A stretch of DNA of 64,000 nt from NCBI GenBank assembly GCA_013359265.1, contig JABWCD010000005.1, positions 73,678 to 137,677 on the forward strand, given 5' to 3'. This stretch comes from Candidatus Hydrogenedentota bacterium (GTDB lineage Bacteria > Hydrogenedentota > Hydrogenedentia > Hydrogenedentales > SLHB01). The notes under the pieces are model-generated. The model was not told the origin of the DNA. It searched no databases and was given only the letters and a program-made list of their open reading frames with translations. Positions 24,429 through 48,695 of this stretch are shown piece by piece (positions within the stretch are counted from its first letter, which is position 1; each line of letters opens with the position of its first letter). The position numbers and the translations under genes were made by a program.

Positions 24429-27400
24429 ATGGACCCTTTTATCGAGACCATCACCAGCGACCAGTCCGTCGTGCGCGAACGCGCGTTCCGCGAACTGTGC
24501 GAAGGCAAGAGCGTGGCCGAACTGTTGCAGTCCTGCGCCGAGTTGGAAACGTTCCGCCGAAAGTCCGACAACCTGTACGAGCGCGTACGCGCGACCTTGT
24601 TCCTGTATGCGGCGCACCGGTTCTATCTGTCCGAGGCGCGCGAGTTACCCGAGGCCGGCGCAGTTCCGTTTGCCGCGGTGCGCGATCTGCACGAGCGGCG
24701 CTTCGAGGAAGCGATTGCGCAGTTCCGCGCGGCACAGCAGGCTAGCGGCGCAAACGGCGCGCTGATGAGCGCCTTGGCCGAAGGTTACCACCATCTCGCG
24801 TTCCAGACGCTCGCGGACCAGGTGCGCCGCAGCGTGCGCGGGAGCCGCGGCAACCAATGGATGTTTCGCGTCGGACACGCCGACAACCATCCGGTCCGAA
24901 TTCGGCCCGAACTCTTGCGCCGAAGCGACGGCTCGATCTTGTATCCCGTGCTCACCGAGCGAACGCCGGTACGGCTGGACCTCAGCCATAGCGGCTGGTC
25001 CGACATATTTTTTCTCGGCATGGATTATCCCGAAGGCGCGCGCGTGGTGAACATTAGCGTTGACCTCGGGGTATACGGCCGCGACACGGACGTTCGCCCG
25101 CCGGTCGAAGCGCATGTACGTGTGATACCCGAACCGGTACTGCGAATTTCGAGCATCGATCTCGGTGTGACGAAGGACATCGTGGACCTCGTCGATCTCT
25201 TCAACTTTGGGAATGACTATCTCAGCCTCGTGAAAGCCGGGGTTATCGCGTCCGGGCTGGTGCCGGCTTCTTTCGAAGGCACTCACCATTCCGTTGCCGC
25301 GGTTCTTGCGTCTGTCGTCGGTCCGGGAATGGGGATTGAGCTAGTCACGAAAGTAAACGACATTCCGAAAGGGTCGCGTCTCGCGGTATCTACAAACCTC
25401 CTCGCGAGCATTGTCAGCGTGCTCATGCGCGCGACGGGACAGACCGCGTCGCTCGAGGGCGGGCTGACCGAGAGCGAACGGAGGCTGGTGGCTTCGCGCG
25501 CGATTCTCGGCGAGTGGCTTGGGGGTAGCGGGGGCGGGTGGCAAGACAGCGGCGGTGTGTGGCCGGGTATCAAGGTCATCGAGGGCGCGCCCGCGAAGGA
25601 AGGCGAACCGGAATTCGGCATCAGCCGCGGCTGTCTTTTGCCGCGGCACCATGTGCTGGGCAAAGACGAAGTCCATCCGGAATTCACGGAGCGATTTGCG
25701 CAGTCGCTGGTGTTGCTCCATGGCGGCATGGCGCAGGACGTTGGGCCGATCCTGGAAATGGTCACGGAGAAGTATTTGCTGCGTTCCGCGGACGAATGGC
25801 GCGCCCGGCAACACATGCGCGCAATATTCGACGGCATACTTACGGCGCTGCGGAAAGGCGACGTGAAATCGCTCGCGACGCACACCACACAAAACTTCGA
25901 CGGGCCTTTGAGGACCATAATTCCCTGGGTGACGAACTATTTTACCGAAACGATTATTTCGCACGCGCGGGCCGCGCTTGGGCGGAACTATTGGGGATTC
26001 CAGATGCTCGGCGGCATGTCCGGCGGGGGCATGGCGATGTACGTTGCACCGGAGGCGCACGCGGAATCGCGCGATCGAATTCTCGATATCATGCGCGCGG
26101 CGAAACTTGGCGTCGATGACGCGCTTCCCTTCGCGATGGAGCCGGTCGTGTACGATTTCCGGATCAACGAGCGGGGTACGTGGGCGACACTGCACGCCGG
26201 CGAAGATGCGATGATGCCGTCGCGGTACTATGCGCTCCAGGTACCGGAACTGGTGCGCCATTCGGCCGACGCGTTGCCGTACTTGCGCCGGGCGGAACTC
26301 GATCACTTCACCGCGAGCAGCAAGGAACCGATCGAGACCTTCGGCCTCCTGCGTACAATCGTCAGCAATTTGTTCCGCGTCGCGAACCCGGCATCTCGTT
26401 CAGAGCGTATCGAGTGGGACCGGGAATCCGAGGCGATCAAGGCGCAGAACGGCTTCGACGTCGTGCAGCACGAGCAGATTCGCGCAGACTTGAGGGCAGG
26501 CCGCATCGGGCTCGCGCATAATCGCATGTCGGTGGAGACCGCCATTGACGATGTGCTTGACGCAGACGTCGCCAAGCTCTCTGACCAGACAAAGCACGCT
26601 TCACGCGGCGAGCGCGCACTGCGCGAAGGCCGCGTCGCCGTGCTGTCCCTTGCGGGCGGCGTGGGCAGCCGATGGACCACCGGGGCGGGTGTCATCAAGG
26701 CGTTGAATCCGTTCGTCAGCATTGCCGGGAAACATCGCAGTTTTCTCGAAATTCATTTGTCAAAGTCACGCGCAACCGCGCAGAAATATGGGGCACATCC
26801 GCCTCACATCGTTTCGACCAGTTTTCTCACGCACGCGCCCATCGAGCGCCACCTTGCAGCGTCGCAGCACTTCGGATACGGCGGTCCAGTGCACTTATCG
26901 CCGGGCCGATCGATTAGCCAGCGGCTGGTGCCGATGGTGCGCGACCTCGTTTTCCTCTGGGAAGAGATGCCGCAGGAAACGCTCGACGAGCAGAAGCAAA
27001 AAGTGCGCGAGGCCGTGCACGGAGCGCTGACGCAGTGGGCGCGCGACGCAGGCGAAGGCAGCGACTACGCCGACAACGTGCCCATCCAACGCTTCAATCC
27101 GCCCGGCCACTGGTACGAGGTTCCAAACCTTTTCCGAAACGGCGCGTTGGCGCGGTTGCTGCGCGAGCGTCCAAACGTCGAGACCATCATGCTGCATAAC
27201 ATCGATACGCTTGGCGCCGATTTGGACCCCGCTGCGCTTGGCTGTCACCTCGAATCCGGCAACGTCCTCACGTTCGAGGTGGTGCCGCGGCGCATCGGCG
27301 ACAGCGGCGGCGGTCTTGCGCGGGTGGGTGGGCGCGTGCGCCTGCTCGAAGGCCTCGCCCAACCGCGCGAGGAAGACGAGTACAAACTCCGGTACTACAA

Positions 27401-27764
27401 TTCGATGACAACATGGATTCAAATCGATCCGCTCCTGAATGTGTTCGGCCTGACGCGCGACGACTTAAACGGGCCGGAGGAATTCATCGCCGAGGCCGTG
27501 CGCAGAATGGCGCAGCGTTTGCCCACGTACGTAACCATCAAGGACGTGAAGAAGCGCTGGGGCCACGGACAAGAGGATGTGTACCCCGTGGCCCAGTTTG
27601 AGAAGTTGTGGAGCGATATGAGTGGACTCCCGGATGTCCGCTGCGGATTTCTCGCGGTACCGCGTTTGCGCGGGCAACAACTCAAGGACCCCGCCGAACT
27701 TGACCCGTGGGCGAACGACGGCAGCAAAGACCACGTCGCGTCCCTGTGCGTGTTTGACGCGTGA
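24429..27764 (+). CDS. 1111-aa fusion protein: N-terminal GHMP-kinase-like region plus C-terminal UDP-sugar pyrophosphorylase (UDPGP)-like nucleotidyltransferase
   Basis: Degenerate GHMP motif II (IPKGSRLAVSTNLLASIVSV) and a C-terminal GHMP glycine block (LGGMSGGGMAMYV) in the first ~550 aa. A UDPGP-type motif LSLAGGVGSRWTTGAG lies around residue 700. Confidence 0.5.
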   Translation: MDPFIETITSDQSVVRERAFRELCEGKSVAELLQSCAELETFRRKSDNLYERVRATLFLYAAHRFYLSEARELPEAGAVPFAAVRDLHERRFEEAIAQFRAAQQASGANGALMSALAEGYHHLAFQTLADQVRRSVRGSRGNQWMFRVGHADNHPVRIRPELLRRSDGSILYPVLTERTPVRLDLSHSGWSDIFFLGMDYPEGARVVNISVDLGVYGRDTDVRPPVEAHVRVIPEPVLRISSIDLGVTKDIVDLVDLFNFGNDYLSLVKAGVIASGLVPASFEGTHHSVAAVLASVVGPGMGIELVTKVNDIPKGSRLAVSTNLLASIVSVLMRATGQTASLEGGLTESERRLVASRAILGEWLGGSGGGWQDSGGVWPGIKVIEGAPAKEGEPEFGISRGCLLPRHHVLGKDEVHPEFTERFAQSLVLLHGGMAQDVGPILEMVTEKYLLRSADEWRARQHMRAIFDGILTALRKGDVKSLATHTTQNFDGPLRTIIPWVTNYFTETIISHARAALGRNYWGFQMLGGMSGGGMAMYVAPEAHAESRDRILDIMRAAKLGVDDALPFAMEPVVYDFRINERGTWATLHAGEDAMMPSRYYALQVPELVRHSADALPYLRRAELDHFTASSKEPIETFGLLRTIVSNLFRVANPASRSERIEWDRESEAIKAQNGFDVVQHEQIRADLRAGRIGLAHNRMSVETAIDDVLDADVAKLSDQTKHASRGERALREGRVAVLSLAGGVGSRWTTGAGVIKALNPFVSIAGKHRSFLEIHLSKSRATAQKYGAHPPHIVSTSFLTHAPIERHLAASQHFGYGGPVHLSPGRSISQRLVPMVRDLVFLWEEMPQETLDEQKQKVREAVHGALTQWARDAGEGSDYADNVPIQRFNPPGHWYEVPNLFRNGALARLLRERPNVETIMLHNIDTLGADLDPAALGCHLESGNVLTFEVVPRRIGDSGGGLARVGGRVRLLEGLAQPREEDEYKLRYYNSMTTWIQIDPLLNVFGLTRDDLNGPEEFIAEAVRRMAQRLPTYVTIKDVKKRWGHGQEDVYPVAQFEKLWSDMSGLPDVRCGFLAVPRLRGQQLKDPAELDPWANDGSKDHVASLCVFDA

Positions 27765-29500
27765 CCACGCGCGGCGCGTTTGCGCGGTACGGCGCATGGG
27801 TCCCGCTGGCTATCGCCGCTGCATTGGCGGCGACGGGCCTGGGCACGGGTTTTGTCGGCGACGACGCGTATCACCTGCTGATTCTCCATGGCGAGCGCAC
27901 GCCATCGGTTGACGGCAATCTCTATTCGTTCATGTCCGGCGATCCCGAAGTTACGCAACAGTTCATCGAATCCGGACCGTATCCGTGGTGGACATGGCCT
28001 GAAGCGAAGGCCGTTTTTTACCGCCCCCTGACGGTCGCGCTGCAACGGCTGGACTTTGCCGTGTTCGGAAACCATGCCGTGTATTGGCATATCCACGGGA
28101 TCGCGTGGTATCTCGCGATGGTCTATGCATGGATTCTGATCGCGCGCAGATCGCTCTCCGCGCCGATTGCCTTTCTCGCGGCGATCCTGTTCGCGATCGA
28201 CGAATCCCATTGGATGCCCGCGGTCTGGATCGCGAACCGTAACGCGGTTGTTGCGTGTGTGCCTGCGTTGTTCGGTCTATACGCGCACCTGCGATGGCGG
28301 GAAAACGGTTGGAAGCCGGGCCTTCCACTTTCCATCGCCGGATACGTTCTCGGCATGTTCGGGGGCGAAGCCTGGCTCGGGATGGCGGCGTACGTGGCGG
28401 CGTATGAACTGTTTCACACGCGCGAAACGATAGCGCGCCGGTTCCTGCACCTCGCTCCCGCGGCGACCTGTGCCATCGCGTACGCTGTCGCGTACAAACT
28501 CTCGGGCTACGGCGCGTACGGTTCGGGCAGCTATACCCAACCGCTCAGTGCGTTGTACTTCTCCGAAGCGCCGGGGCGCATACTCGCGCTGATCGGCGGT
28601 CTGCTCCTCTCCTCGCCGGTCGATGCGTGGGCATTTTTCCCGCAACTGCGCTGGGCGCTCATCGCCATTGGAATATTCTCCCTCATCCTATTCTCCGGCT
28701 TGTTGCACCGGTGCTGGCCCGGGCTGGACGAGCGCGACCGCGCTGCGCTGCGCTGGCTCATACCCGGCGGAATCCTGTCGCTCCTTCCGGTGATTGCCGC
28801 ATTTCCGATGGGCCGTCTCCTGCTCGGGCCGTCGCTTGCGGGCAGCGCAGTCGTCGCCGTGTTACTGCGCCACTGGTGGATGACCCGGCGGAAACGGCGC
28901 ATTCAACTCGCAGGTGTCGCGTGCGCGGCGCTTGCGTTTGTCCACATCGTAGTCGCCACCATTGCGTGGCCCGCGCAGTCCGCGATTATCACGTTTATCG
29001 GGTATTGGGCCGATCGCGTTTTTCTCGAGGCGCCGATCGACGACGCGCGCGTTTCCAGGCAGAAGGTTTTCCTGCTCGCCGCGCAGGACCCGTTCACATT
29101 GATGTATCCGCCCATCGTTCGTCGGCTGAAAGGCAAGCCTTTGCCGGAGGGATGGCACGCGCTATCCGCCTCGATGTCGGACCATGTGTTTACGCGCACT
29201 GGGGCGAACTCGTTCGAGTTCGAGTCCGCGCGCGGACCGCTCGTGGACGGCGTATTCGCGGACATCTTGCGGGGCCCTGACCATCCGCTCGCGGAGGGCG
29301 ACACGGTCAGCCTCGGCGATGCGCGGATCATTGTGCTCGATGTTATCGACGGAAGGCCGAGGAAGATTCGCGTCGAGTGCGACCAGCCGCTCGATGGTCC
29401 GCGGTACGTGTTTCTGCAATGGATCGATTACCGGCTGCAACTGTTCCCGTTACCACCGGTGGGCGAGTCGCGGGTTGTCAGGTACGCTAAAGCAAATTGA
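27761..29500 (+). CDS. Polytopic membrane protein, GT-C-like glycosyltransferase architecture
   Basis: GTG start overlaps the upstream TGA (GTGA). About 11 TM helices, followed by a soluble ~170-aa C-terminal domain. Confidence 0.45.
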   Translation: MTTRGAFARYGAWVPLAIAAALAATGLGTGFVGDDAYHLLILHGERTPSVDGNLYSFMSGDPEVTQQFIESGPYPWWTWPEAKAVFYRPLTVALQRLDFAVFGNHAVYWHIHGIAWYLAMVYAWILIARRSLSAPIAFLAAILFAIDESHWMPAVWIANRNAVVACVPALFGLYAHLRWRENGWKPGLPLSIAGYVLGMFGGEAWLGMAAYVAAYELFHTRETIARRFLHLAPAATCAIAYAVAYKLSGYGAYGSGSYTQPLSALYFSEAPGRILALIGGLLLSSPVDAWAFFPQLRWALIAIGIFSLILFSGLLHRCWPGLDERDRAALRWLIPGGILSLLPVIAAFPMGRLLLGPSLAGSAVVAVLLRHWWMTRRKRRIQLAGVACAALAFVHIVVATIAWPAQSAIITFIGYWADRVFLEAPIDDARVSRQKVFLLAAQDPFTLMYPPIVRRLKGKPLPEGWHALSASMSDHVFTRTGANSFEFESARGPLVDGVFADILRGPDHPLAEGDTVSLGDARIIVLDVIDGRPRKIRVECDQPLDGPRYVFLQWIDYRLQLFPLPPVGESRVVRYAKAN

Positions 29501-39273: not shown

Positions 39274-39314
39274 CGAAAAATGGTCGGGGCGACTGGATTC
39301 GAACCAGCGACCCC
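39274..39314 (-). repeat. Partial 3' fragment of tRNA-Pro (T-arm, acceptor 3' strand and CCA, plus 6 nt of flank): att-like direct repeat marking the distal end of the island
   Basis: A 41-nt block exactly identical to 48611-48651, followed by weaker similarity. No complementary 5' acceptor strand is present, so this is not a functional tRNA. Confidence 0.8.
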
Positions 39315-39485
39315 TGCCCAGGCTGCACGATGTGCGCAGTGCACCGCCATAGAACGTCCTTTCGTTGGCCCGCCTCAATCTTGATCCGCCAGCGCACACC
39401 CTGTTACATATCAGTCTAACGGGTGCATGGCGTGTCGGGCGCAGGCAATGACCGTCCCCCGTTGGGATTCGAGTGGGGAGAATTC

Positions 39486-42400
39486 ATGGCCGAGAAGCCC
39501 AATCCTAGAAGCGAGCCGCGCGGCAAAGACCTGTTCATTGTCGACAACAGCGACACGGACTGGAAGGTCAAGAGCTACCTCCAGGAATGGACAGAGGTCG
39601 CGCATCAGTTCGACATTGCCACGGGATATTTCGAGGTGGGCGCACTGCTTGCGCTGGACGGTCAGTGGCAGAAGCTCGACAAGGTCCGCATTCTCATGGG
39701 CGACGAGGTCAGCCTCCGCACCAAACGTGCTTTCACAAACGGACTCGCCAAGGTCGAAATGGCGCTCGACGCGAGCATCGAAAAGGAAAAAGAAACGAAC
39801 GACTTTCTCCACGGCGTACCGGGGATTGTCGAGGGCATTCGGTCGAACAAAATCGAGTGCCGCGTCTACACGAAAGACAAATTCCACGCCAAGGCCTTTA
39901 TCACCCACGGCAAGCTCGCCGTTGTCGGCTCGACCGCCTTGGTCGGCTCCAGCAACTTCACTTACCCGGGTCTGACGGACAATGTCGAGCTGAACGTCCA
40001 GATTCAGCGCGAGGTCAAGGACCTTCAAGAGTGGTACGAACGCCACTGGAACGAAGCGAAGGACGTTTCGGAAGATGTCCTCCGCGTCATCGAACGCCAC
40101 ACGCGCGAGTTCACGCCCTTCGAGGTATACGTCAAGGCGCTTCAGGAGTTCTTCCGAGGCCACGAACTGACGGCATCGGAATGGGAACTGACCAAATCGC
40201 TGATGTACCCCAAACTGGATCAATACCAGAAAGAGGGCTACCACGCGCTGCTCAAAATCGCCATGCAACACAAGGGCGCTTTTCTCTGCGACGGCGTCGG
40301 TTTGGGCAAGACGTTTATCGGCATGATGCTGATCGAACGCCTCACGATGTTCGACCGCAAACGTGTCGCGCTATTCGTCCCAAAGGCTGCTCGCAAGCCA
40401 GTCTGGGAAGCCGCGCTCAGAAAGTATCTGCCCAATCTCGGCGGGGACTTTACGAACCTTGTGATTTACAACCACACCGACTTGCAGCGGGGCGGCGAAT
40501 ATCAGTCGCGCTTGGCCCGACTGAAAGACATGGCTGACGTGGTGATAATCGACGAAGCGCATCACTTCCGCAATCCCGGCGTAAAGGGCGAAGGCACGAA
40601 GCGGCCCTCACGGTACTGGCACATGTTTGACCTGTGCGAAGGCAAGACGGTGTTCATGCTCACCGCGACGCCCATCAACAACAGTCTACTCGACTTTCAG
40701 CACATGATCGAGCTGTTCAGCCGCCGCGAGTCGGCGTATTTCCAGAACACAGTCGGAATCCATTCCCTCGCTGGCCATTTTCGCAAGCTGGAGAAGGCGC
40801 TGGAACGCGCCGTTGGCATCGGCGTGGAACAGATGGAACTGCCCATCGAAGTGAATCAGGCGGAAGCCGCCGAAGTCATTACCGGCGATCCCCTCCTGAC
40901 AAAGCTGGTCGTGCAGCGCAGCCGCGCCTACGTGCGTAAGAGCCAAGAACAACACGACGGGCGGACAGCCATTTTCCCCGAACGCCAGGCCCCGCAGGTC
41001 GCGGATTACTCGATCAAGAAAACATACGGGCGCTTGTTGAAAATGCTTGAGGACGCATTCAACAAGGAAAAGCCGCTATTCTCGCTCGCCATCTACTACC
41101 CATTGGCCTACTACAAAGGGCCGAACGACGCGATTGACACCAAGCTGGAAAACCGGCAAAAGCAGGTCGTCAGCCTGATCCGCACGCAGTTCCTAAAGCG
41201 ATTCGAAAGCTCGGCGCGCGCGTTCCAAATGTCTTGTCAGGCGCTGATGCTCAAGCTGCTTGCCTTCGCGACAAAGCACAGCACGTCGATCACCGAGAAA
41301 CACCGGCTGGAACGGTGGAAGGGACAACACGAGGACCTCATCGGATACGTCCGCGAGCATCAGCACGAATTCTGGGGCGACGCGGAGGAAGACGACGCGG
41401 ACGCGGACATCATCACCGATGAAATGATGGAAGACATCGACGAACTTCACGAAGACGAGTACAACATCGATGAAATCCTGTCCGAAACTTTCCTCGACCT
41501 CGACCAGGTCGCCGCATTCCTTCAGGAACTACAGAAGTTCAAGCCATCGCACGACGACAAGCTGAAGGCCCTCGTGAAACTGCTGAAATCAGACCCCGTG
41601 CTCAAAGAGCACAAGGTTATTATCTTCTCCGAATACATGGCGACGGCTCGCTATCTCAGGAAGCAACTGGAAGAACAGGGCTTTACCCGCGTCGACGAAG
41701 TGGACTCCGCCAGCAAGAAAGACCGGGGCGTGGTCATCACCCGCTTCGCGCCGTACTACAACGATTCGTCGTCGGGAAAGCTGGCGGAGGAGGGTCACGA
41801 TGAAACGGGCATCCTTATCGCCACGGACGTGCTCTCCGAAGGCCTGAACCTCCAGGACGCGACGCGGCTCATCAATTACGACCTCCACTGGAACCCTGTC
41901 CGCCTCATGCAGCGCATTGGCCGCGTGGACCGCCGCATGAACCCGGATGTCGAGGCCGCGATTCTCAAGGACCATCCGGAACAAGAGAAGATTCGCGGCA
42001 AGGTCGCCTACTGGAACTTCCTGCCCCCGGACGAACTGGACGAACTGCTCCGGCTGTATTCGCTCGTGTCGCACAAGACGCTGAAGATTTCGAAAACGCT
42101 CGGTATCGAAGGCAAAAAGCTGCTCCGGCCCGAAGACGACTACGAGGCCCTGAAAGACTTCAACCACGCCTACGAAGGCACGCCCAGCGGCGACGAGGCA
42201 ATGCACCTCGAATACCAGCGACTATTGAAGGAACACCCCGGTTTGGAGGAACGGCTAAACGCGTTGCCCAAGCGGGTATTCTCCGGGAAGGAACACCCTA
42301 AGCCGGGCACCAAGGCCGTCTTCTTCTGTTTCTCGCTGCCCGCGTTCGATACCAGCGTGAAACTCGAAGAGGGCGATCCGGAAACGAACGCCTGGACAGA

Positions 42401-42647
42401 CGACGCGGGCCTCACGCAGTGGTATCTGTACGATCTGGCGACCGAAAATATTCACACCGACGCTGCCGAAATCTTCACAGTGATCCAGAGCGAACCGGAC
42501 ACGCCACGACACCGATCCGTGACGGACGAGACGCTTTCCGAAATTCGCGCTAAGGTTGAAAGACACGTCAAGAACACATACTTCAAGCAAGTTCAGGCTC
42601 CGGTCGGAGTTCGGGCCACGCTCAAATGCTGGATGGAACTAAGCTAG
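39486..42647 (+). CDS. Fusion protein: N-terminal PLD-family nuclease domain plus SNF2-family (SF2) helicase
   Basis: HxK PLD motif (FHAKAFITHGK...GSSNFT). SNF2 Walker A (LCDGVGLGKTF), DEAH box (VIIDEAHHFRNP), helicase-C (ILIATDVLSEGLNLQDA...QRIGRVDR). GGGGAGA RBS before the ATG at 39486. Confidence 0.8.
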   Translation: MAEKPNPRSEPRGKDLFIVDNSDTDWKVKSYLQEWTEVAHQFDIATGYFEVGALLALDGQWQKLDKVRILMGDEVSLRTKRAFTNGLAKVEMALDASIEKEKETNDFLHGVPGIVEGIRSNKIECRVYTKDKFHAKAFITHGKLAVVGSTALVGSSNFTYPGLTDNVELNVQIQREVKDLQEWYERHWNEAKDVSEDVLRVIERHTREFTPFEVYVKALQEFFRGHELTASEWELTKSLMYPKLDQYQKEGYHALLKIAMQHKGAFLCDGVGLGKTFIGMMLIERLTMFDRKRVALFVPKAARKPVWEAALRKYLPNLGGDFTNLVIYNHTDLQRGGEYQSRLARLKDMADVVIIDEAHHFRNPGVKGEGTKRPSRYWHMFDLCEGKTVFMLTATPINNSLLDFQHMIELFSRRESAYFQNTVGIHSLAGHFRKLEKALERAVGIGVEQMELPIEVNQAEAAEVITGDPLLTKLVVQRSRAYVRKSQEQHDGRTAIFPERQAPQVADYSIKKTYGRLLKMLEDAFNKEKPLFSLAIYYPLAYYKGPNDAIDTKLENRQKQVVSLIRTQFLKRFESSARAFQMSCQALMLKLLAFATKHSTSITEKHRLERWKGQHEDLIGYVREHQHEFWGDAEEDDADADIITDEMMEDIDELHEDEYNIDEILSETFLDLDQVAAFLQELQKFKPSHDDKLKALVKLLKSDPVLKEHKVIIFSEYMATARYLRKQLEEQGFTRVDEVDSASKKDRGVVITRFAPYYNDSSSGKLAEEGHDETGILIATDVLSEGLNLQDATRLINYDLHWNPVRLMQRIGRVDRRMNPDVEAAILKDHPEQEKIRGKVAYWNFLPPDELDELLRLYSLVSHKTLKISKTLGIEGKKLLRPEDDYEALKDFNHAYEGTPSGDEAMHLEYQRLLKEHPGLEERLNALPKRVFSGKEHPKPGTKAVFFCFSLPAFDTSVKLEEGDPETNAWTDDAGLTQWYLYDLATENIHTDAAEIFTVIQSEPDTPRHRSVTDETLSEIRAKVERHVKNTYFKQVQAPVGVRATLKCWMELS

Positions 42648-42671: not shown

Positions 42672-43163
42672 ATGCCGTATCGAATCACTGAGAAACTTCA
42701 GGGGGTGAAGGTTTCGGCGGGTACACTGGCCAACGCCGTGTCAACCATCCAAGGTGCAAAAGGTGGCGTTCCCGTATTCAGCTTTGCCAAGGGTGAGTTC
42801 GAACTTCGGCGACTCGATGTTGCAGTCACCATACCCGCCACCGGTGCATGGCCCGGCCCCGTCCAAGTTCGCGTGGCACAACTGCCACGTTTGAAAAAGT
42901 ACTTGGATTTGAAGTCCCTGGACGCGGAAATCGATATTTTGCCCACGCTAAGAGCGTTGAGGATTGGCGAGATTCAGGTTCCTTGCACGTGGCGCGCTAG
43001 GGCGTATGAAATCTTACGGGGCGCAACTGTAATTACATCGCCGGAACACCGACGCAAGTTCGAAGAGGTGGACAAAATAATTGGGAGCAAGTACGCCGCT
43101 CAAGCGATGAAAGATGCGGTCAACCCAAAAGAAGATGAAGAATGGCGCGAGACACTATTCTAA
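42672..43163 (+). CDS. Hypothetical 163-aa protein, second gene of the island cassette
   Basis: GGGGA RBS; 25 nt downstream of the helicase gene; its 3' end overlaps the methyltransferase start by 22 nt. Confidence 0.5.
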   Translation: MPYRITEKLQGVKVSAGTLANAVSTIQGAKGGVPVFSFAKGEFELRRLDVAVTIPATGAWPGPVQVRVAQLPRLKKYLDLKSLDAEIDILPTLRALRIGEIQVPCTWRARAYEILRGATVITSPEHRRKFEEVDKIIGSKYAAQAMKDAVNPKEDEEWRETLF

Positions 43164-46100
43164 GCATCGTTGATTTCCCTAGCCTTGTTACCTTCCTGGC
43201 CGACGAACTCGATTGGCCAATCGAGGACGACCAGTTTGACGACCTCGATGCGCTGGCATTCGACTACACGCCGGACGAACTCAACTTGCCGGACGAACTC
43301 CATGCCCGCGTGCGCAACGTCAAACAAATGCGCCCGCTCACGACCAACCAGCCGTGGGCGGTGTTCTACGTCGAGTTCGAGTCGAAGCGCCTGCCCCTTA
43401 CCGCGCTCCGCCGCATTCTGAATCGGTTCGTCGAGAAAAAGCGCACGTCCGCCGGTGACCGTGTCACGTGGAAAATGCAAGACCTCCTGTTCGTGAATGC
43501 CCACGGCGACGGCGAAGATCGGGGCATGACCTTTGCCCACTTCTCGAAGCCGGACGCGGGCTACACCGCCGTCATGCGCGAGTTCATGTGGACGCGCAAA
43601 GAAACGCACTTGGCCCATATTCACAATTATATCGAGTGCCTCCACTGGCCGGATGACGGTACGAGCCAGAAAGACTGGCGCGAGCAGTGGCGTTCGGCCT
43701 TTGTCGGCTCGAAGCGAAAAGCCATCCGGGACTCGAAAGAATTGGCCCAGGAAATGGCGCACTTCGCGCGGGACGTGCGCAAGCGCGTCGGTGAAGTGCT
43801 GGACATTACGCGCAAACGGCAGTTTGAGCCATTGCAGCAACTGTACAAGGCATTCAAGACGCTCTTAATCCATGACCTGTCGGAGGACGATTTCGCCGAC
43901 ACCTACGCGCAGACCCTTGCGTATGGACTGTTTGCGGCGCGCGCGGCCCATCCCAACGAATCATTTGACGTGGCCCACGCGCCGGAGCGCATTCCGCCTA
44001 CAAATCCTTTCCTACAGGGCCTATTCGCGCAGTGCTTGGGTCTGACAAAGGTTGGCGGTGGGAAGATCGACATTGAAGAAATCGGCGTGGGCCGATTGGT
44101 TGAACTCTTCGAGGGCCTGCGCCCCGAGGATACGACACGCATTCTCAACGAATTCGGGTCGCAGACCGGCGATCCAGTCATTCACTTCTACGAGGAATTC
44201 CTGACGGAATACGACAAGCGGAAGAAGGTTCAGCGCGGTGTGTTCTACACGCCCAAGCCGGTCGTGTCCTACATCGTGCGCAGCGTACACGAATTGCTTC
44301 AGACCGAGTTTGGGCTTGAGGACGGTCTTGCTTCGACCGATACGTGGGCAGATATGGCCGCACGATTTCCGAAATTAAAGATTCCGGATGAAGTAAACTC
44401 GAAATCCGCTTTCGTACAAATTCTCGATCCCGCTACCGGCACCGCCACCTTCCTCGTGGAGGTTATCGAAGTAATTCATCGCACACTGACCGAGCGGTGG
44501 AAGCGCGAGAAGGTTTCCGCGCAACAGCAGCAGGTCCTGTGGAATCAGTATGTCGTCAAGCACCTTCTTCCGCGACTCCACGGCTACGAACTCATGATGG
44601 CCCCCTACACCATCGCCCACATGAAAATTGGGCTGAAGTTGAGAGAACTGAATTTCACCGCACTCCAATCACTTGGTGCGAATGACCGGGTTCGAGTATA
44701 TCTCACAAATGCGCTAGAAGAACCTGACGATGCAAGCGGTCAAGCGCAAATCGAACAATGCACCCCCGCGCTCGCGCGAGAAGCCACTGAGGTTGGAAAG
44801 ATTAAGCGTGGCACGGTTTTTACAGTTGTAATTGGTAATCCGCCATACTCCGGGATATCGGCCAATCTGTCAACTGCAATGCGCCGCAGTGTCGACCCGT
44901 ACCGTTTTGTGGATGGCGATCCAATTAGGGAAAAAAGTGCGCTCCAATTCGAGAAGAATCTCAACGACGATTATGTGAAGTTTTTTCGTTTTGCCGAGAA
45001 GCAAATAGAGAAACGAGTTGGTCTTATCGGCCTCATCACAAACAATGGCTATCTGGAAAGCGCGACCCTGCGTGGCATGAGGAATCACTTGCTGCAATCG
45101 TTTGGTCGGCGTTGGTTCCTAGATCTGCATGGTGATGCTGACAAGCGAGAGCGTGATGAACTGGACCAGACAGACGAGAATGTCTTTGAGATAAAGCGCG
45201 GGGTTTGCATCGCACTCCTCGTTCGCCGTCCGAAGATCCATCTAGCCGACAACGAGTTGTTCAGACAGGACATACGAGGAAGTTCTGGGCACAAGTATCA
45301 TTGGCTAACCACTAATTCGATTTTGTCCACGCGGTTTTCTGCATTCGCAGCTAGAGAACCAAACTACTATTTCTTTGCGCGCAACGCCGAAACGGAGGCC
45401 GAATATAACCAAGCGATTCCTATGGTCGAACTTTATGGAATAAACTCGACCGGCTTTGAATCTGGACGTGACGAGATCCTTACCGACTTTACTGCAATGG
45501 AACTTCGATCCAAACTTGTGCATTTTGCGACGTCACCAAAGGACGAGATTGTCCAAAGGTACTCTGTTTCCGAAGCGTGGGGAAAGAAACTATTCGATGA
45601 AAGGGCGACCATCGTCGCGGAAAAGGATTTTGCGAGGCATATCACGCCTTTCTTGTTTGGCCCTTTCGACTTGCGATACTGCTTCTACCGAAAAGACCTC
45701 TTGAAGACAAACAGTCACAGCGCGGGGAAACATCTCCTTGCAGGACAAAATGTTGCCCTGATGGTAATGCGGCAAGTCTCCATTGATGGCCCATTTACGC
45801 ATATTGGCGTGTCCAAAGTCATTCCAAACAACCGGTGTTTCTATAGTACCAAAGGGAAAATCTCATATTTTCCGCACGAACTCTTAGCTGGTGATCGAGA
45901 CCTGCCGTATTCGAGAGATCGATTTGTAGGATCTAACTTCAGACCGCAGGCATTGGCGCGAATCAAACGTCTTCTTAAACCCCACCAATCTGAGACCGAA
46001 CTCTCTGATCGAGCAGTGTTCGACTATGCTTACGCGGTGTTTCACAGTCCCGGCTACAGGAGCCGCTACGCGGAGTTTTTGAAGACCGATTTCCCGCGCT

Positions 46101-47158
46101 TGCCGTTAACCGGGAACCTGGAACTGTTCGGCGCGCTGGCCCGGCTCGGCGGCGAACTCGTCGCTCTGCACCTGCTGGAATCGCCCAAGCTCGACAAACC
46201 AATTACCGAATTTATTGGTGGGCGGAATCCCGAGGTCGAAAAGGTCTCGTGGTCGAATAACACCGTGTGGGTGGACAAGGCACAGACCACCGGCTTCCAG
46301 GGCGTGCGCGAGGACGTGTGGAACTTCCATGTCGGCGGCTATCAGGTCTGTGAGAAATGGCTCAAAGACCGCAGAGGCCGCACGCTGTCGGACGACGACA
46401 TCGCGCACTACCACAAAATCGTCGTCGCGCTCACCGAGACCATCCGGATCATGAAGGAAATCGATGAGGTCATCGACCAACACGGCGGCTGGCCCGGCGC
46501 TTTCTTGACGGGCAATTCCGCGGCGACGGTCCCCCCGGAAGCATCCGAGACAGTAGATCTCACATCAGCAAATAACGAACCAGAGTCACCCTGCGCCGCC
46601 GCCGATGAACCTGATCTGTTTTCATCCGTCGAGTCAGTCGGCTCCGACGAACTGGAGGGCGCCGCCGAGGAGTTGCCGGAAGTGCAGGACGAGGACGATG
46701 CGCCAAGTTATCGTCCGATCAGCGAGGTGCCGCGCGAGGAAGTGCTGTGCGCGGTGCGTAAGATACTCACCGCCGAATCGCCCTTGGACCGGGACGACCT
46801 GCTGAAACGCCTAGCCGAAGAGTTCGGTTATCAGCGGCTCGGCCCGAAGGCGCGCGACTTGCTCGAAGACGATCTGAAGACGGCAGTGCGCCGTGGCATC
46901 GCCAAGCGTAACAGCAACGAATACTCGCTGATCGCGCGCGGCATCAACGGCTACAACCGCAACTGGCTCAAAGACTGTTTCGTCAGCGCAACGGGCCGCA
47001 CGTGGATTTCCCGCGAGGACGCCATCCGCCAGTTTGCGCGGCACCTCGGATTCGCCCGCACCGGCAGCGCTATCGAGGACATGGCCCGCTCCCTCATTAA
47101 AGGCCTCCTCCGCGAGGGGCGGCTCGAATCCGACGGCCCGAATATTCGACGGGTGTAG
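43142..47158 (+). CDS. Giant (1338 aa) gamma-class N6-adenine DNA methyltransferase, type IIG/ISP- or BREX-PglX-like, with acidic linker and extra C-terminal domain
   Basis: Motif order FYTP (X), then ILDPATGTATFL (I), then VIGNPPYSG (IV). Long central/TRD-like region, an acidic linker ELEGAAEELPEVQDEDD, and a ~150-aa C-terminal domain. Confidence 0.75.
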   Translation: MARDTILSIVDFPSLVTFLADELDWPIEDDQFDDLDALAFDYTPDELNLPDELHARVRNVKQMRPLTTNQPWAVFYVEFESKRLPLTALRRILNRFVEKKRTSAGDRVTWKMQDLLFVNAHGDGEDRGMTFAHFSKPDAGYTAVMREFMWTRKETHLAHIHNYIECLHWPDDGTSQKDWREQWRSAFVGSKRKAIRDSKELAQEMAHFARDVRKRVGEVLDITRKRQFEPLQQLYKAFKTLLIHDLSEDDFADTYAQTLAYGLFAARAAHPNESFDVAHAPERIPPTNPFLQGLFAQCLGLTKVGGGKIDIEEIGVGRLVELFEGLRPEDTTRILNEFGSQTGDPVIHFYEEFLTEYDKRKKVQRGVFYTPKPVVSYIVRSVHELLQTEFGLEDGLASTDTWADMAARFPKLKIPDEVNSKSAFVQILDPATGTATFLVEVIEVIHRTLTERWKREKVSAQQQQVLWNQYVVKHLLPRLHGYELMMAPYTIAHMKIGLKLRELNFTALQSLGANDRVRVYLTNALEEPDDASGQAQIEQCTPALAREATEVGKIKRGTVFTVVIGNPPYSGISANLSTAMRRSVDPYRFVDGDPIREKSALQFEKNLNDDYVKFFRFAEKQIEKRVGLIGLITNNGYLESATLRGMRNHLLQSFGRRWFLDLHGDADKRERDELDQTDENVFEIKRGVCIALLVRRPKIHLADNELFRQDIRGSSGHKYHWLTTNSILSTRFSAFAAREPNYYFFARNAETEAEYNQAIPMVELYGINSTGFESGRDEILTDFTAMELRSKLVHFATSPKDEIVQRYSVSEAWGKKLFDERATIVAEKDFARHITPFLFGPFDLRYCFYRKDLLKTNSHSAGKHLLAGQNVALMVMRQVSIDGPFTHIGVSKVIPNNRCFYSTKGKISYFPHELLAGDRDLPYSRDRFVGSNFRPQALARIKRLLKPHQSETELSDRAVFDYAYAVFHSPGYRSRYAEFLKTDFPRLPLTGNLELFGALARLGGELVALHLLESPKLDKPITEFIGGRNPEVEKVSWSNNTVWVDKAQTTGFQGVREDVWNFHVGGYQVCEKWLKDRRGRTLSDDDIAHYHKIVVALTETIRIMKEIDEVIDQHGGWPGAFLTGNSAATVPPEASETVDLTSANNEPESPCAAADEPDLFSSVESVGSDELEGAAEELPEVQDEDDAPSYRPISEVPREEVLCAVRKILTAESPLDRDDLLKRLAEEFGYQRLGPKARDLLEDDLKTAVRRGIAKRNSNEYSLIARGINGYNRNWLKDCFVSATGRTWISREDAIRQFARHLGFARTGSAIEDMARSLIKGLLREGRLESDGPNIRRV

Positions 47159-47207: not shown

Positions 47208-48317
47208 ATGCCATACAGGCCAAAGGAAGAATTTGTCCAAATGGCTAAGCAGGTGGTGGTAACGGGAAGGCCGCTCACTATTTCCGTGCGACAGTTGTTG
47301 GAGTTCTTTTGGCAGGAAAGGCGCGGCAAATACGTTACTCGGTACATTCGGAGCAAACTAACGAGTCTGGGGGTCGAGACGGATCCTCCATTTGAAGATG
47401 AACATATTGACGGTATAATCAAACTCTTTCCGCGGGAAAAGCGGGGCCCGGGCCGACCACCAAAAGCTGGTAAGAAAACGCCCGGTGCCGTTGCTGTGGT
47501 ACCACCTGCCCTTGTCGTAAACGATACGGAGTCGAGCCCCGTTATCGAGGAAAATATCCCGGTCGAAGATTCGGTTGAAGATGAGCGCCGCTCGTACTTG
47601 CCCATTTCGCTATTGAGCGCAGCAAACCGAAAGCCTGTGAGTGTGCGTCCAGGCGATGAGATTGAAACGGTCGTGTTCCAATTAATGTCCGAAGGACTCG
47701 CTCATTTGCCCGTGTTACGGGATTCTAGAAGTCCTGAGGGAATCATCACTTGGCAATCATTGGGCAAGGCAAACGCGGGTGGCGATCCTCCGAAGACCGC
47801 AAGAGAGTGTTTGGATGTCGACGTCCGTGTTGTCGGCTTGGATACGCCGCTGTTCGATGCTGTTAGGGACATCATCAAAAGCGGCGTAGTATTGGTGCGG
47901 AACAAGAGCAATGAGATATGCGGCATGCTCACGGCGCAGGACATCGCGGAGCAGTTCGTTGCGCTCTCTGAACCTTTTTTGTTTCTCGAACAGATCGAGA
48001 ACCATCTTCGTAATTTGTTGATTCGTGCCAAGCTCTCGCAACAAGAACTGAATTCTTTTATTGATCCGGCCGACAAAAGAAGAACTCAAGGAAAAATAAC
48101 CGTAGATGACCTGACCTTTGGCGAGTATTTGCGGGCGATGTCGAAGGAAGAGGTTTGGTCGCGACTAGCACTTAGAATTAATCGGAAGCTGTTCATCGAT
48201 CGGATGGATAAAGTGCGCGAGATCCGAAATAGCGTAATGCATTTTCATCCGGATGGAATTTCAGATGGCGATCGTGAACTGCTCGCCAAAACGCGTGAAA
48301 TGCTACAAGGTCTGTAA
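47208..48317 (+). CDS. CBS-pair / HEPN-domain protein with AT-hook (putative nucleotide-sensing RNase effector)
   Basis: AT-hook KRGPGRPPKAGKK; two CBS-like segments (ETVVFQLMSEGLAHLPVL; LFDAVRDIIKSGVVLVRN); C-terminal HEPN Rx4H motif REIRNSVMHFH. Confidence 0.6.
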   Translation: MPYRPKEEFVQMAKQVVVTGRPLTISVRQLLEFFWQERRGKYVTRYIRSKLTSLGVETDPPFEDEHIDGIIKLFPREKRGPGRPPKAGKKTPGAVAVVPPALVVNDTESSPVIEENIPVEDSVEDERRSYLPISLLSAANRKPVSVRPGDEIETVVFQLMSEGLAHLPVLRDSRSPEGIITWQSLGKANAGGDPPKTARECLDVDVRVVGLDTPLFDAVRDIIKSGVVLVRNKSNEICGMLTAQDIAEQFVALSEPFLFLEQIENHLRNLLIRAKLSQQELNSFIDPADKRRTQGKITVDDLTFGEYLRAMSKEEVWSRLALRINRKLFIDRMDKVREIRNSVMHFHPDGISDGDRELLAKTREMLQGL

Positions 48318-48529: not shown

Positions 48530-48616
48530 GCCATGCAAGTCGAAAGCGGAATTTGTGGCACTTGCGAAGCAGCAAGTTCGAAAAACCGGACGTCGTGCAT
48601 GGGCAAGAGTGAAAAA
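48530..48616 (+). pseudogene. Remnant N-terminus of a paralog of the CBS/HEPN gene, running into the tRNA-Pro 3' end
   Basis: MPCKSKAEFVALAKQQVRKTGR aligns with MPYRPKEEFVQMAKQVVVTGR of the 47208 gene (12/22 identical). The reading frame continues into tRNA sequence. Confidence 0.5.
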
Positions 48617-48695
48617 TGGTCGGGGCGACTGGATTCGAACCAGCGACCCCTTGCCCCCCAGGCAAGTGCGCTAAACCGGGCTGCGCTACGCCCCG
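48617..48695 (-). tRNA. tRNA-Pro (anticodon GGG), CCA encoded
   Basis: Manual fold: acceptor CGGGGCG/CGCCCCG, D-arm GCGC..GCGC, anticodon stem CTTGC/GCAAG with loop CTGGGGG (anticodon GGG, G37), T-arm GCTGG-TTCGAAT-CCAGT, discriminator A, CCA. Confidence 0.8.

Follow-up and report, generated by a model that had tools for sequence, protein, structure and literature searches.

A PLD–Snf2 helicase-nuclease and its adjacent adenine methyltransferase as a candidate two-gene restriction system

A 64,000-nucleotide stretch of contig JABWCD010000005.1 from a Candidatus Hydrogenedentota bacterium (the window, in what follows) encodes a 1053-amino-acid (aa) protein in which a phospholipase D (PLD, or HKD) nuclease domain and a Swi2/Snf2 helicase core share one polypeptide. 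The question raised by this locus is what such a protein belongs to: does it act alone, is it the fused remainder of a known multi-gene defence system, or is it one subunit of something else? We favour the last of these. Specifically, we propose, with a probability that we put at roughly 0.68, that the protein (PLD-Snf2 from here on) is the restriction subunit of a compact, two-gene, ATP-dependent defence resembling restriction-modification (R-M), and that its obligatory partner is the 1338-aa methyltransferase (MTase) encoded downstream (Table 1).

Co-occurrence and anatomy of the two genes

The evidence that carries this reading is the company that the gene keeps. We retrieved 80 genome loci holding relatives of the helicase, all from metagenome-assembled genomes (MAGs) and spread over many bacterial phyla and one archaeon. 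In 67 of them the helicase gene is complete at its 3′ end and is followed by 1 kb of sequence or more; in 65 of these 67, a region matching the MTase N-terminus begins on the same strand less than 4 kb beyond the helicase. The match runs through the MTase and its target recognition domain (TRD) in 45 loci. In at least seven it is limited to MTase aa ~4–187, the partner there still being an Eco57I/MmeI-type MTase of 1150–1590 aa but with a TaqI_C or DUF7008 specificity region, and we therefore take the first ~190 aa of the MTase to be the conserved module of the partner. Throughout, the partner core is of the Eco57I/MmeI type and the N-terminal domain is kept, while the TRD varies (Type_ISP_C, TaqI_C, DUF7008 or M_Eco57I_C). 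Likewise, in the reverse direction, starting from the MTase or its N-terminal domain led to eight loci, and all eight carry PLD-Snf2 directly upstream. All-against-all clustering of every ORF (open reading frame) of at least 100 aa in a set of 81 loci returned only the helicase and the MTase as conserved, the other large clusters being their shadow ORFs, and a third conserved large gene was not found. What emerges is a two-gene unit, distinct from the named multi-gene systems, in which either gene is almost always accompanied by the other, the TRDs are modular and there is no third component. An earlier note on this DNA, made from the sequence alone, had suggested that the fusion could be the nucleolytic arm of an island system; the conserved pairing with an MTase fits that suggestion, except that the “system” consists of one partner gene and is not a multi-gene assembly.

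It is informative to examine the loci that depart from the simplest arrangement. Two of them are among the eight loci of the reverse comparison. In L091 (1–9231), one PLD-Snf2 gene is followed by two MTases that have the conserved N-terminal domain and different TRDs, one of 1472 aa and TaqI_C type and the other of 1076 aa and Type_ISP_C type. In L085 (1–6800), the helicase and the MTase are both broken into several frames, as in a decayed, pseudogenised copy. L001 holds the closest relative of the helicase among the 80 genome loci (72% identity) together with an MTase whose N-terminal domain is only 26% identical, a disparity from which we conclude that partners are swapped. A solitary PLD-Snf2 gene, with no adjacent MTase and beside housekeeping genes, is present in two loci (L010 and L020); such solitary helicases would be tolerable if, by analogy with Type I and Type III enzymes, the nuclease-motor cannot be directed to its DNA targets without the MTase-TRD. 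Eco57I-type MTases also adjoin the relatives, at 26–29% identity, that cultured Deinococcus radiophilus, Calothrix and Halalkalicoccus carry on plasmids, and the same two-gene neighbourhood is listed in Table 3 of Milman et al. 2023 as a “PLD + SNF CDS” beside a Cj0031-like Type II R-M CDS (PMC9881135).

Some of these loci have further peculiarities. The partner MTase of L001 (13129–17343) contains an IS200-like Y1_Tnp match at aa 974–1025, that of L054 (13123–16941) ends in a C-terminal Schlafen AlbA_2 domain and that of L087 (1276–5943) includes a GmrSD_N domain. Upstream of the solitary PLD-Snf2 gene in L010 lie a gene for an MrfA-like helicase (DEAD + MZB/DUF1998) and an RNase_H_2 gene.

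The helicase-nuclease itself is encoded by an ORF that spans 39423–42647; its ATG at 39486 follows a GGGGAG Shine-Dalgarno-like motif, and the 1053-aa product is 100% identical to a database protein of the same length (P0001, from a Candidatus Hydrogenedentes MAG). ORF, Pfam matches and motifs all bear out the earlier note's statement that a PLD domain and a full SNF2 core are joined in one polypeptide. It had placed the first directly before the second, and here the order stands, with a helical linker of ~40 aa in between. Pfam PLDc_2 matches aa 40–188 (39.6 bits against a gathering cutoff of 27), ResIII/SNF2-rel_dom matches aa 243–411 above the gathering cutoffs (SNF2-rel_dom, 33.8 bits against 24.9), and Helicase_C matches aa 692–816 at 66.1 bits, also above its cutoff. 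Each chain has a single HKD motif, that is, one HxK...GSxN, with HAK at aa 134–136 within FHAKAFITHGK and GSSN at aa 154–157; GLGKT follows at aa 272–276, DEAH at 356–359, TATP at 393, WNP at 802 and QRIGRVDR at 809. The superfamily 2 (SF2) motifs, the WNP block and the fold are those of a Swi2/Snf2 ATPase, and the motif and fold profile of the N-terminal domain are those of the PLD superfamily, except for His141 at the Asp position. The remainder is harder to place. Pfam scans at E≤5 of the insertion between the RecA-like lobes (aa 421–690) and of the C-terminal tail gave no meaningful match. The earlier note had described ~300 aa without a recognisable motif after the helicase; the region indeed has no recognisable fold, but it measures ~223–235 aa. 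No fold could be assigned to this tail and neither an SRA-like nor another reader fold was found in it; its alpha+beta domain at aa ~930–1053 is confidently modelled, and we suspect that the tail (aa 831–1053) has a docking or regulatory role.

The conservation of the presumed catalytic residues is extensive. Eleven orthologues and three relatives at 26–27% identity were combined into a profile of the first 235 aa. Among all Protein Data Bank (PDB) sequences, this profile matched best the nuclease domain of SauUSI (7clg, E=2.8e-10), with lower matches to a phospholipase, BfiI (2c1l, 5.6e-5), Zucchini/MitoPLD, NgoAVII and Nuc, which confirms the PLD-like nature of the domain. In an alignment of 61 orthologues at 49–72% identity, taken from the 80 genome loci, F133-H134-A135-K136, T140-H141 and L152-V-G-S-S-N157 are invariant, as are Walker A, DEAHHFRN, TATP and HWNP...QRIGRVDR. 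H134, K136, GSSN, N166 and E168 are invariant also in the distant plasmid relatives (26–29% identity), so that the HxK pair picked out in the earlier note is retained at both depths of comparison. The family as a whole has more than 6000 database relatives and is strikingly conserved, at 50–70% identity across unrelated phyla. Plasmids carry relatives at 24–30% identity only, and with 11 distant partial matches the family is essentially absent from phage genomes.

The partner is homologous to DrdV (7lo5), LlaBIII (4xqk, 5.5e-23) and LlaGI (5ffj, 2.9e-20) in the PDB. Its MTase motifs are DPATGTA at aa 429 and NPPY at aa 566, and an NPPY-type motif is intact in all 47 full-length partner MTases. 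The N-terminal domain is of a different kind: aromatic or hydrophobic residues predominate among its invariant positions (W25, Q70, W72, F75, F79, R90, W110, F117, W150, W183, F187), a PD-(D/E)xK-type catalytic set is not conserved in it, its profile has no match among PDB sequences at E≤1, and a Pfam scan of MTase aa 1–353 at E≤5 gave no meaningful match. Because this domain has neither a conserved catalytic set nor a Pfam or PDB nuclease match, the MTase appears to be without a nuclease of its own. Searched for exhaustively among 1.84 billion representatives, the N-terminal domain turned up in 662 clusters at 50% identity, always as the extreme N-terminus of proteins of ~1100–1550 aa; a word-indexed homologue search with the same domain gave 10 matches, mostly fragments.

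Two smaller observations concern this protein. E78, E80 and K82 are suggestive of a PD-(D/E)xK nuclease in the N-terminal domain, a candidate that we rejected since these residues are not conserved. At the other end, aa 1150–1338 (46589–47155) form an optional extension that also matches the tails of PADLOC PDC-S37 and of NCBIfam anti-phage ProA.

Known systems and rival explanations

The fusion of HKD and Snf2 is already known, and its parts and likely mechanism are as a specialist would expect. A paper of 2008 already mentions fusions of HKD with helicases in R-M contexts (PMC2292703). The best PADLOC profile for our protein is PDLC01075, “C3a139 HKD+Snf2” (4e-56, 188.9 bits, protein aa 100–827 against profile positions 86–737 of 948), a match to be read as family-level similarity only because PADLOC has no curated cutoff for it; the C3a139 cluster was catalogued in 2018 among the genes that neighbour type III CRISPR loci (Shah et al. 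2018, PMC6546367). This cluster and the inversion-locus context of Milman et al. present the same architecture or neighbourhood as the pair in the window, but they are catalogue entries for which no system or mechanism was proposed or tested. An N-terminal HKD on a Swi2/Snf2 helicase is, furthermore, the synapomorphy of Type-2 BREX-related (BR) systems (Rakesh & Krishnan NAR 2026, PMC12839542). The unusualness that the earlier note implied for the fusion is therefore not sustained, given a catalogue entry from 2018, a role as the Type-2 BR effector and thousands of relatives. The comparisons that matter are those with whole systems, and membership in DISARM, in MANTIS, Hma and Type-2 BR, or in Type ISP was rejected in each case on at least one defining feature.

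Type ISP enzymes (LlaGI, LlaBIII) provide a parallel on the recognition side. The partner MTase-TRD is homologous to their C-terminal half, and both arrangements have in common the logic of nuclease, double-stranded DNA (dsDNA) motor, MTase and TRD. However, a Type ISP enzyme is one continuous chain whose nuclease is a PD-(D/E)xK domain of the Mrr family and whose motor is Type I-like, whereas here the nuclease is a PLD domain, the motor is of the Snf2 type, and both lie on the separate 1053-aa protein.

Of the readings that compete with ours, the one that fares best, although we consider it unlikely, is that PLD-Snf2 is an autonomous Type IV enzyme like SauUSI and that the MTase is an independent Type IIG or IIL enzyme that happens to travel with it in defence islands. 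SauUSI (PDB 7CLG, PMC7913695) has the closest solved PLD domain, and its order of nuclease, motor, helical segment and terminal domain is mirrored in our protein; it forms a PLD-mediated dimer and cleaves after ATP-driven translocation (PMC7913695). In addition, PADLOC labels the MTase “REase_MTase_IIG” (1.2e-186), and the helicase stands alone in the two loci described above. Yet SauUSI acts autonomously on methylated cytosine through an SRA-like TRD and uses a non-Snf2 SF2 motor, whereas PLD-Snf2 has no SRA-like fold, or any other reader fold, in its tail and would owe its specificity to a separate MTase-TRD protein. Independent travellers would also not be expected to show a same-strand adjacency that is near-obligate both ways (65/67 and 8/8), nor a partner that keeps a specific N-terminal domain while its TRD is swapped, and the apparent lack of a nuclease in the MTase sits poorly with a self-contained Type IIG or IIL enzyme.

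A second possibility, which we regard as less probable still, is that the pair is a degenerate or minimal MANTIS or Type-2 BR (Hma-like) system that has lost its AAA+ ATPase and DUF3780/MtsB genes or encodes them elsewhere. The likeness of the effectors is real: the Type-2 BR effector combines an N-terminal HKD endoDNase, a Swi2/Snf2 helicase and C-terminal alpha+beta elements and has an N6-MTase partner (PMC12839542). MANTIS (formerly Gao_RL) consists of MtsA (AAA+), MtsB, MtsC (MTase) and MtsD (PLD-helicase), and MtsD, which in a 2.2-Å cryo-EM structure is a dimer with one shared PLD active site (bioRxiv 10.64898/2026.09.23.753747), likewise joins an N-terminal PLD nuclease to an SF2 helicase-like ATPase and is proposed to restrict unmethylated DNA downstream of an adenine MTase complex. 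The matches by score are distant, with PADLOC HmaA at 1.5e-23 on the C-terminal lobe only, PADLOC PLD_Helicase at 7.5e-24, and the NCBIfam PLD anti-phage equivalog NF042964, which probably corresponds to MtsD, at 136.5 bits against a cutoff of 1100. More telling is what the loci lack. The defining features of a BR system are a DUF499 ATPase, DUF3780 (present in 98% of the loci of Type-2) and an MTase of the DUF1156 type whose TRD is inserted in the Rossmann fold (PMC12839542). A DUF499 AAA+ ATPase (HmaC) was found neither in the window nor as a conserved neighbour in the 81 loci, and the same holds for a standalone DUF3780 gene, the ORF in the slot between the two genes of the window having no Pfam match. 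The MTase has no DUF1156 match and is instead of Eco57I/MmeI type with a C-terminal TRD. MANTIS, moreover, needs AAA+ MtsA and MtsB to load its MTase, whereas the locus in the window has an MTase and a PLD-helicase only; PLD-Snf2 differs from MtsD in its clear Snf2 motor with a 223-aa extra tail, and the MTase-TRD that goes with it is self-contained and Type ISP/IIG-like.

We think it improbable that the pair excludes DNA by methylation and without cleavage, or that the Snf2 protein has a role outside defence (RapA-like recycling of RNA polymerase, or repair) with a PLD domain that is structural or acts on a substrate other than DNA. Foldseek does place RapA and eukaryotic Snf2 remodellers as the best whole-chain matches (the top group comprising RapA, SMARCAD1, Mot1, ISWI, Rad54, CSB and ZorD), the structural model is poor at the PLD catalytic loop, and HKD has a His in place of its acidic residue. 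Against this, H134, K136, GSSN and N166/E168 are unchanged down to 26% identity, the profile matches are to nucleases specifically, and the locus has the hallmarks of mobile defence, namely relatives at 50–70% identity in unrelated phyla, a tRNA islet that includes a DS-11 gene, and toxin-antitoxin (TA) and nuclease cargo.

The least probable of the four is the DISARM framing of the earlier note, in which DrmC (PLD) would be fused to DrmD (Snf2) in a class 1 variant with the MTase as DrmMI: class 1 DISARM loci likewise combine a PLD protein with an Snf2 helicase and a large N6-adenine MTase, the helicase is matched over its C-terminal half by the DrmD models of PADLOC (1e-29) and NCBIfam (127.5 bits), and PADLOC DrmMI weakly matches ~110 aa of the MTase (1.3e-6), but in DISARM PLD and Snf2 are separate genes, the defining core of DrmA and DrmB (DUF1998) was found neither in the window nor as a conserved family in the 81 loci, and every NCBIfam equivalog scores far below its cutoff (DrmD 127.5 against 610, DrmD_b 96.1 against 950, DrmC_I 21.2 against 133).

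The tRNA-Pro islet and its cargo

The location of the pair can be described closely. An exact 41-bp direct repeat, present in two copies only in the window, brackets a 9.3-kb segment with a GC content of 55.3%, against ~60% in the flanks, and one copy overlaps the 3′ end of a tRNA-Pro gene (Table 1). Within the segment lie four genes only: PLD-Snf2, a 163-aa orphan ORF (orf163), the MTase and a gene for a CBS-HEPN protein. An integrase was not found on it, no ORF of at least 100 aa being present beyond the four genes and their shadow ORFs, and the segment looks like an integrase-less or decayed defence islet integrated at the tRNA gene.

Table 1. Features of the islet and of the two core genes (window coordinates)
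Feature	Coordinates	Strand	Remarks
Left copy of exact 41-bp direct repeat (att-like)	39275..39315		Equals tRNA-Pro 3′ end + 6 nt
PLD(HKD)-Snf2 helicase-nuclease gene	39486..42647	+	1053 aa; proposed restriction (motor + nuclease) subunit
PLD/HKD nuclease domain, aa ~15–200	39528..40085	+	Pfam PLDc_2 5.6e-10, PDB profile matches, residue invariance
HxK (H134/K136)	39885..39893	+
GSSN, aa 154–157	39945..39956	+
Snf2 ATPase lobe 1, aa 243–420	40212..40745	+	Walker A GVGLGKT, DEAHHFRN, TATP
Insertion between RecA-like lobes, aa 421–690	40746..41555	+	Mostly helical, conserved, without Pfam family
Snf2 ATPase lobe 2 / Helicase_C, aa 691–830	41556..41975	+	HWNP...QRIGRVDR invariant
C-terminal tail, aa 831–1053	41976..42644	+	Helical segment + alpha+beta domain aa ~930–1053; 35 invariant positions
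orf163, orphan ORF in slot between core genes	42672..43163	+	163 aa; outside the conserved module
Gamma-class N6-adenine MTase with C-terminal TRD	43142..47158	+	1338 aa; proposed modification + specificity subunit
Conserved MTase N-terminal domain, aa 1–190	43142..43711	+	Kept when TRD type changes; putative adaptor for PLD-Snf2
MTase catalytic region, aa ~346–700	44177..45241	+	N6_Mtase/Eco57I/MmeI_Mtase matches
Type ISP C-terminal specificity domain, aa 764–1106	45431..46459	+	Pfam PF18135 3.2e-65, profile 2–342/342
DUF3320 motif in optional C-terminal extension, aa 1195–1237	46724..46852	+	In some partner MTases only
CBS + HEPN (RNSVMH) protein gene	47208..48317	+	369 aa; DS-11-type single-gene anti-phage system; separate system, same islet
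Right copy of 41-bp direct repeat	48611..48651		Overlaps 3′ 35 nt of tRNA-Pro
tRNA-Pro(GGG)	48617..48695	-	Integration site of the 9.3-kb islet

What separates the helicase gene from the MTase gene is a variable slot for cargo. In the window it is occupied by orf163, which has a Shine-Dalgarno-like motif and a 22-nt overlap with the MTase start, and which in a search of 5.8 billion proteins matched only itself and in a Pfam scan at E≤5 matched nothing. Extra genes occupy the slot in about half of the loci (among them L003, L014, L018, L019, L022, L030, L045, L049 and L068), and these include ORF6N, a YhcG/DUF1016 nuclease, HigB/HigA-like and MqsA-like (MqsA/SecB-like) TA modules, PIN, and Schlafen-AlbA_2/Fic-C. 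Embedded cargo of this kind is typical of Type I R-M operons.

The fourth gene of the islet belongs to a different system. Its product matches NCBIfam NF053863 over the whole profile (1–305 of 305) at 293.3 bits against a cutoff of 260, has a Pfam CBS match and bears the HEPN Rx4H motif as RNSVMH at aa 340–345; DS-11 is described in PMC13092281 (DefensePredictor, Science 2026). Homologues lie near the PLD-Snf2/MTase pair, in either orientation, in six other loci of the 80 (L021, L025, L026, L068, L071 and L080).

Rfam identified only the tRNA-Pro in 38–50 kb, and promoter and terminator counts in 38.9–48.7 kb were at or below shuffled expectation and hence uninformative. The genes at 18–39 kb are metabolic (HAD hydrolase, GNAT, GHMP kinase, sulfatase, glycosyl hydrolases). 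Also outside the islet, at 24429–29500 (+), a 1111-aa protein with only a partial C-terminal UDPGP (UTP-glucose-1-phosphate uridylyltransferase) match overlaps the start of a 579-aa ORF without a Pfam match; both are large and uncharacterised.

Proposed mechanism and significance

Taken as a unit, the anatomy of the pair may be read, by analogy with Types I, III and ISP, as an ATP-dependent R-M enzyme split in two, with the MTase-TRD as the modification and specificity (M+S) subunit and the motor and nuclease as the R subunit; by the same kind of comparison, the effector side is most like MANTIS MtsD or SauUSI and the recognition side like Type ISP or IIG. One can imagine the following course of events. 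The MTase would use its Type-ISP-type TRD to pick out a DNA site that is short and probably asymmetric, and would methylate the host's own sites. At an unmethylated site, the MTase-TRD would recruit or activate PLD-Snf2 through the ~190-aa N-terminal domain, which possibly touches the conserved C-terminal tail of the helicase. The Snf2 core would then translocate on dsDNA with ATP. Since each chain has one HxK, two PLD domains would have to pair into one active site, as in BfiI, SauUSI and MANTIS MtsD, and DNA breaks might be made by a constitutive dimer or on the stalling or collision of translocating complexes, with a possible dependence on site orientation.

Several points weigh against this proposal. 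For the PLD-Snf2 family, defence, interaction, ATPase activity and nuclease activity are all things that we infer, and the contact between the MTase N-terminal domain and the helicase tail is a guess. The acidic residue of HxK(x)4D is replaced by an invariant His141; the corresponding position in SauUSI is a Glu (PMC7913695). The full-chain AlphaFold2 (AF2) model is only moderate, with a mean predicted local distance difference test (pLDDT) score of 73, and because the PLD catalytic segment at aa 131–176 falls below 50, the geometry of the active site has no structural support. Conservation is much higher in the helicase than in the MTase, as the 72% and 26% identities in L001 illustrate, which points to modular exchange and not to tight co-evolution. 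A self-contained Type IIG enzyme is the annotation default for the MTase, given its PADLOC label. Finally, the analogy with MANTIS rests on an unfinished model, because neither an interaction of MtsD with MtsABC nor cleavage in vitro has so far been obtained for that system (bioRxiv 10.64898/2026.09.23.753747).

We hesitate to go much further, but these observations invite a broader and more tentative suggestion, for which we would give somewhat less than even odds: that the pair typifies a distinct and widespread class of ATP-dependent, two-subunit R-M enzyme, a “split Type ISP”, in which the nuclease (Mrr to PLD) and the motor (Type I-like to Snf2) have been replaced non-homologously. In such a class, a conserved motor-nuclease would dock through the ~190-aa adaptor onto interchangeable MTase-TRD cassettes, sometimes two per motor, and there would be no need for an AAA+ loader of the kind that BREX, MANTIS and Hma employ.

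To a specialist the fusion protein alone is no surprise; what is added here is the definition of the real unit, PLD-Snf2 together with an Eco57I-type MTase-TRD that has a conserved N-terminal domain, and this unit is widespread and uncharacterised. If the two-gene reading is true, many genes annotated as “helicase-related protein” and as solitary “Type IIG” MTases would be the two halves of one restriction system, which defence-finding tools now split or miss. Exchangeable TRD cassettes, combined with one constant motor-nuclease, could serve programmable long-range DNA cleavage. The pair would also stand as the simplest of the helicase-nuclease defences that are based on methylation (DISARM, BREX-3, Hma/BR, MANTIS), and for that reason a tractable model both for the handover of unmethylated DNA from an MTase to its effector, which MANTIS has not yet answered in vitro, and for the coupling of an Snf2 motor to a PLD nuclease.

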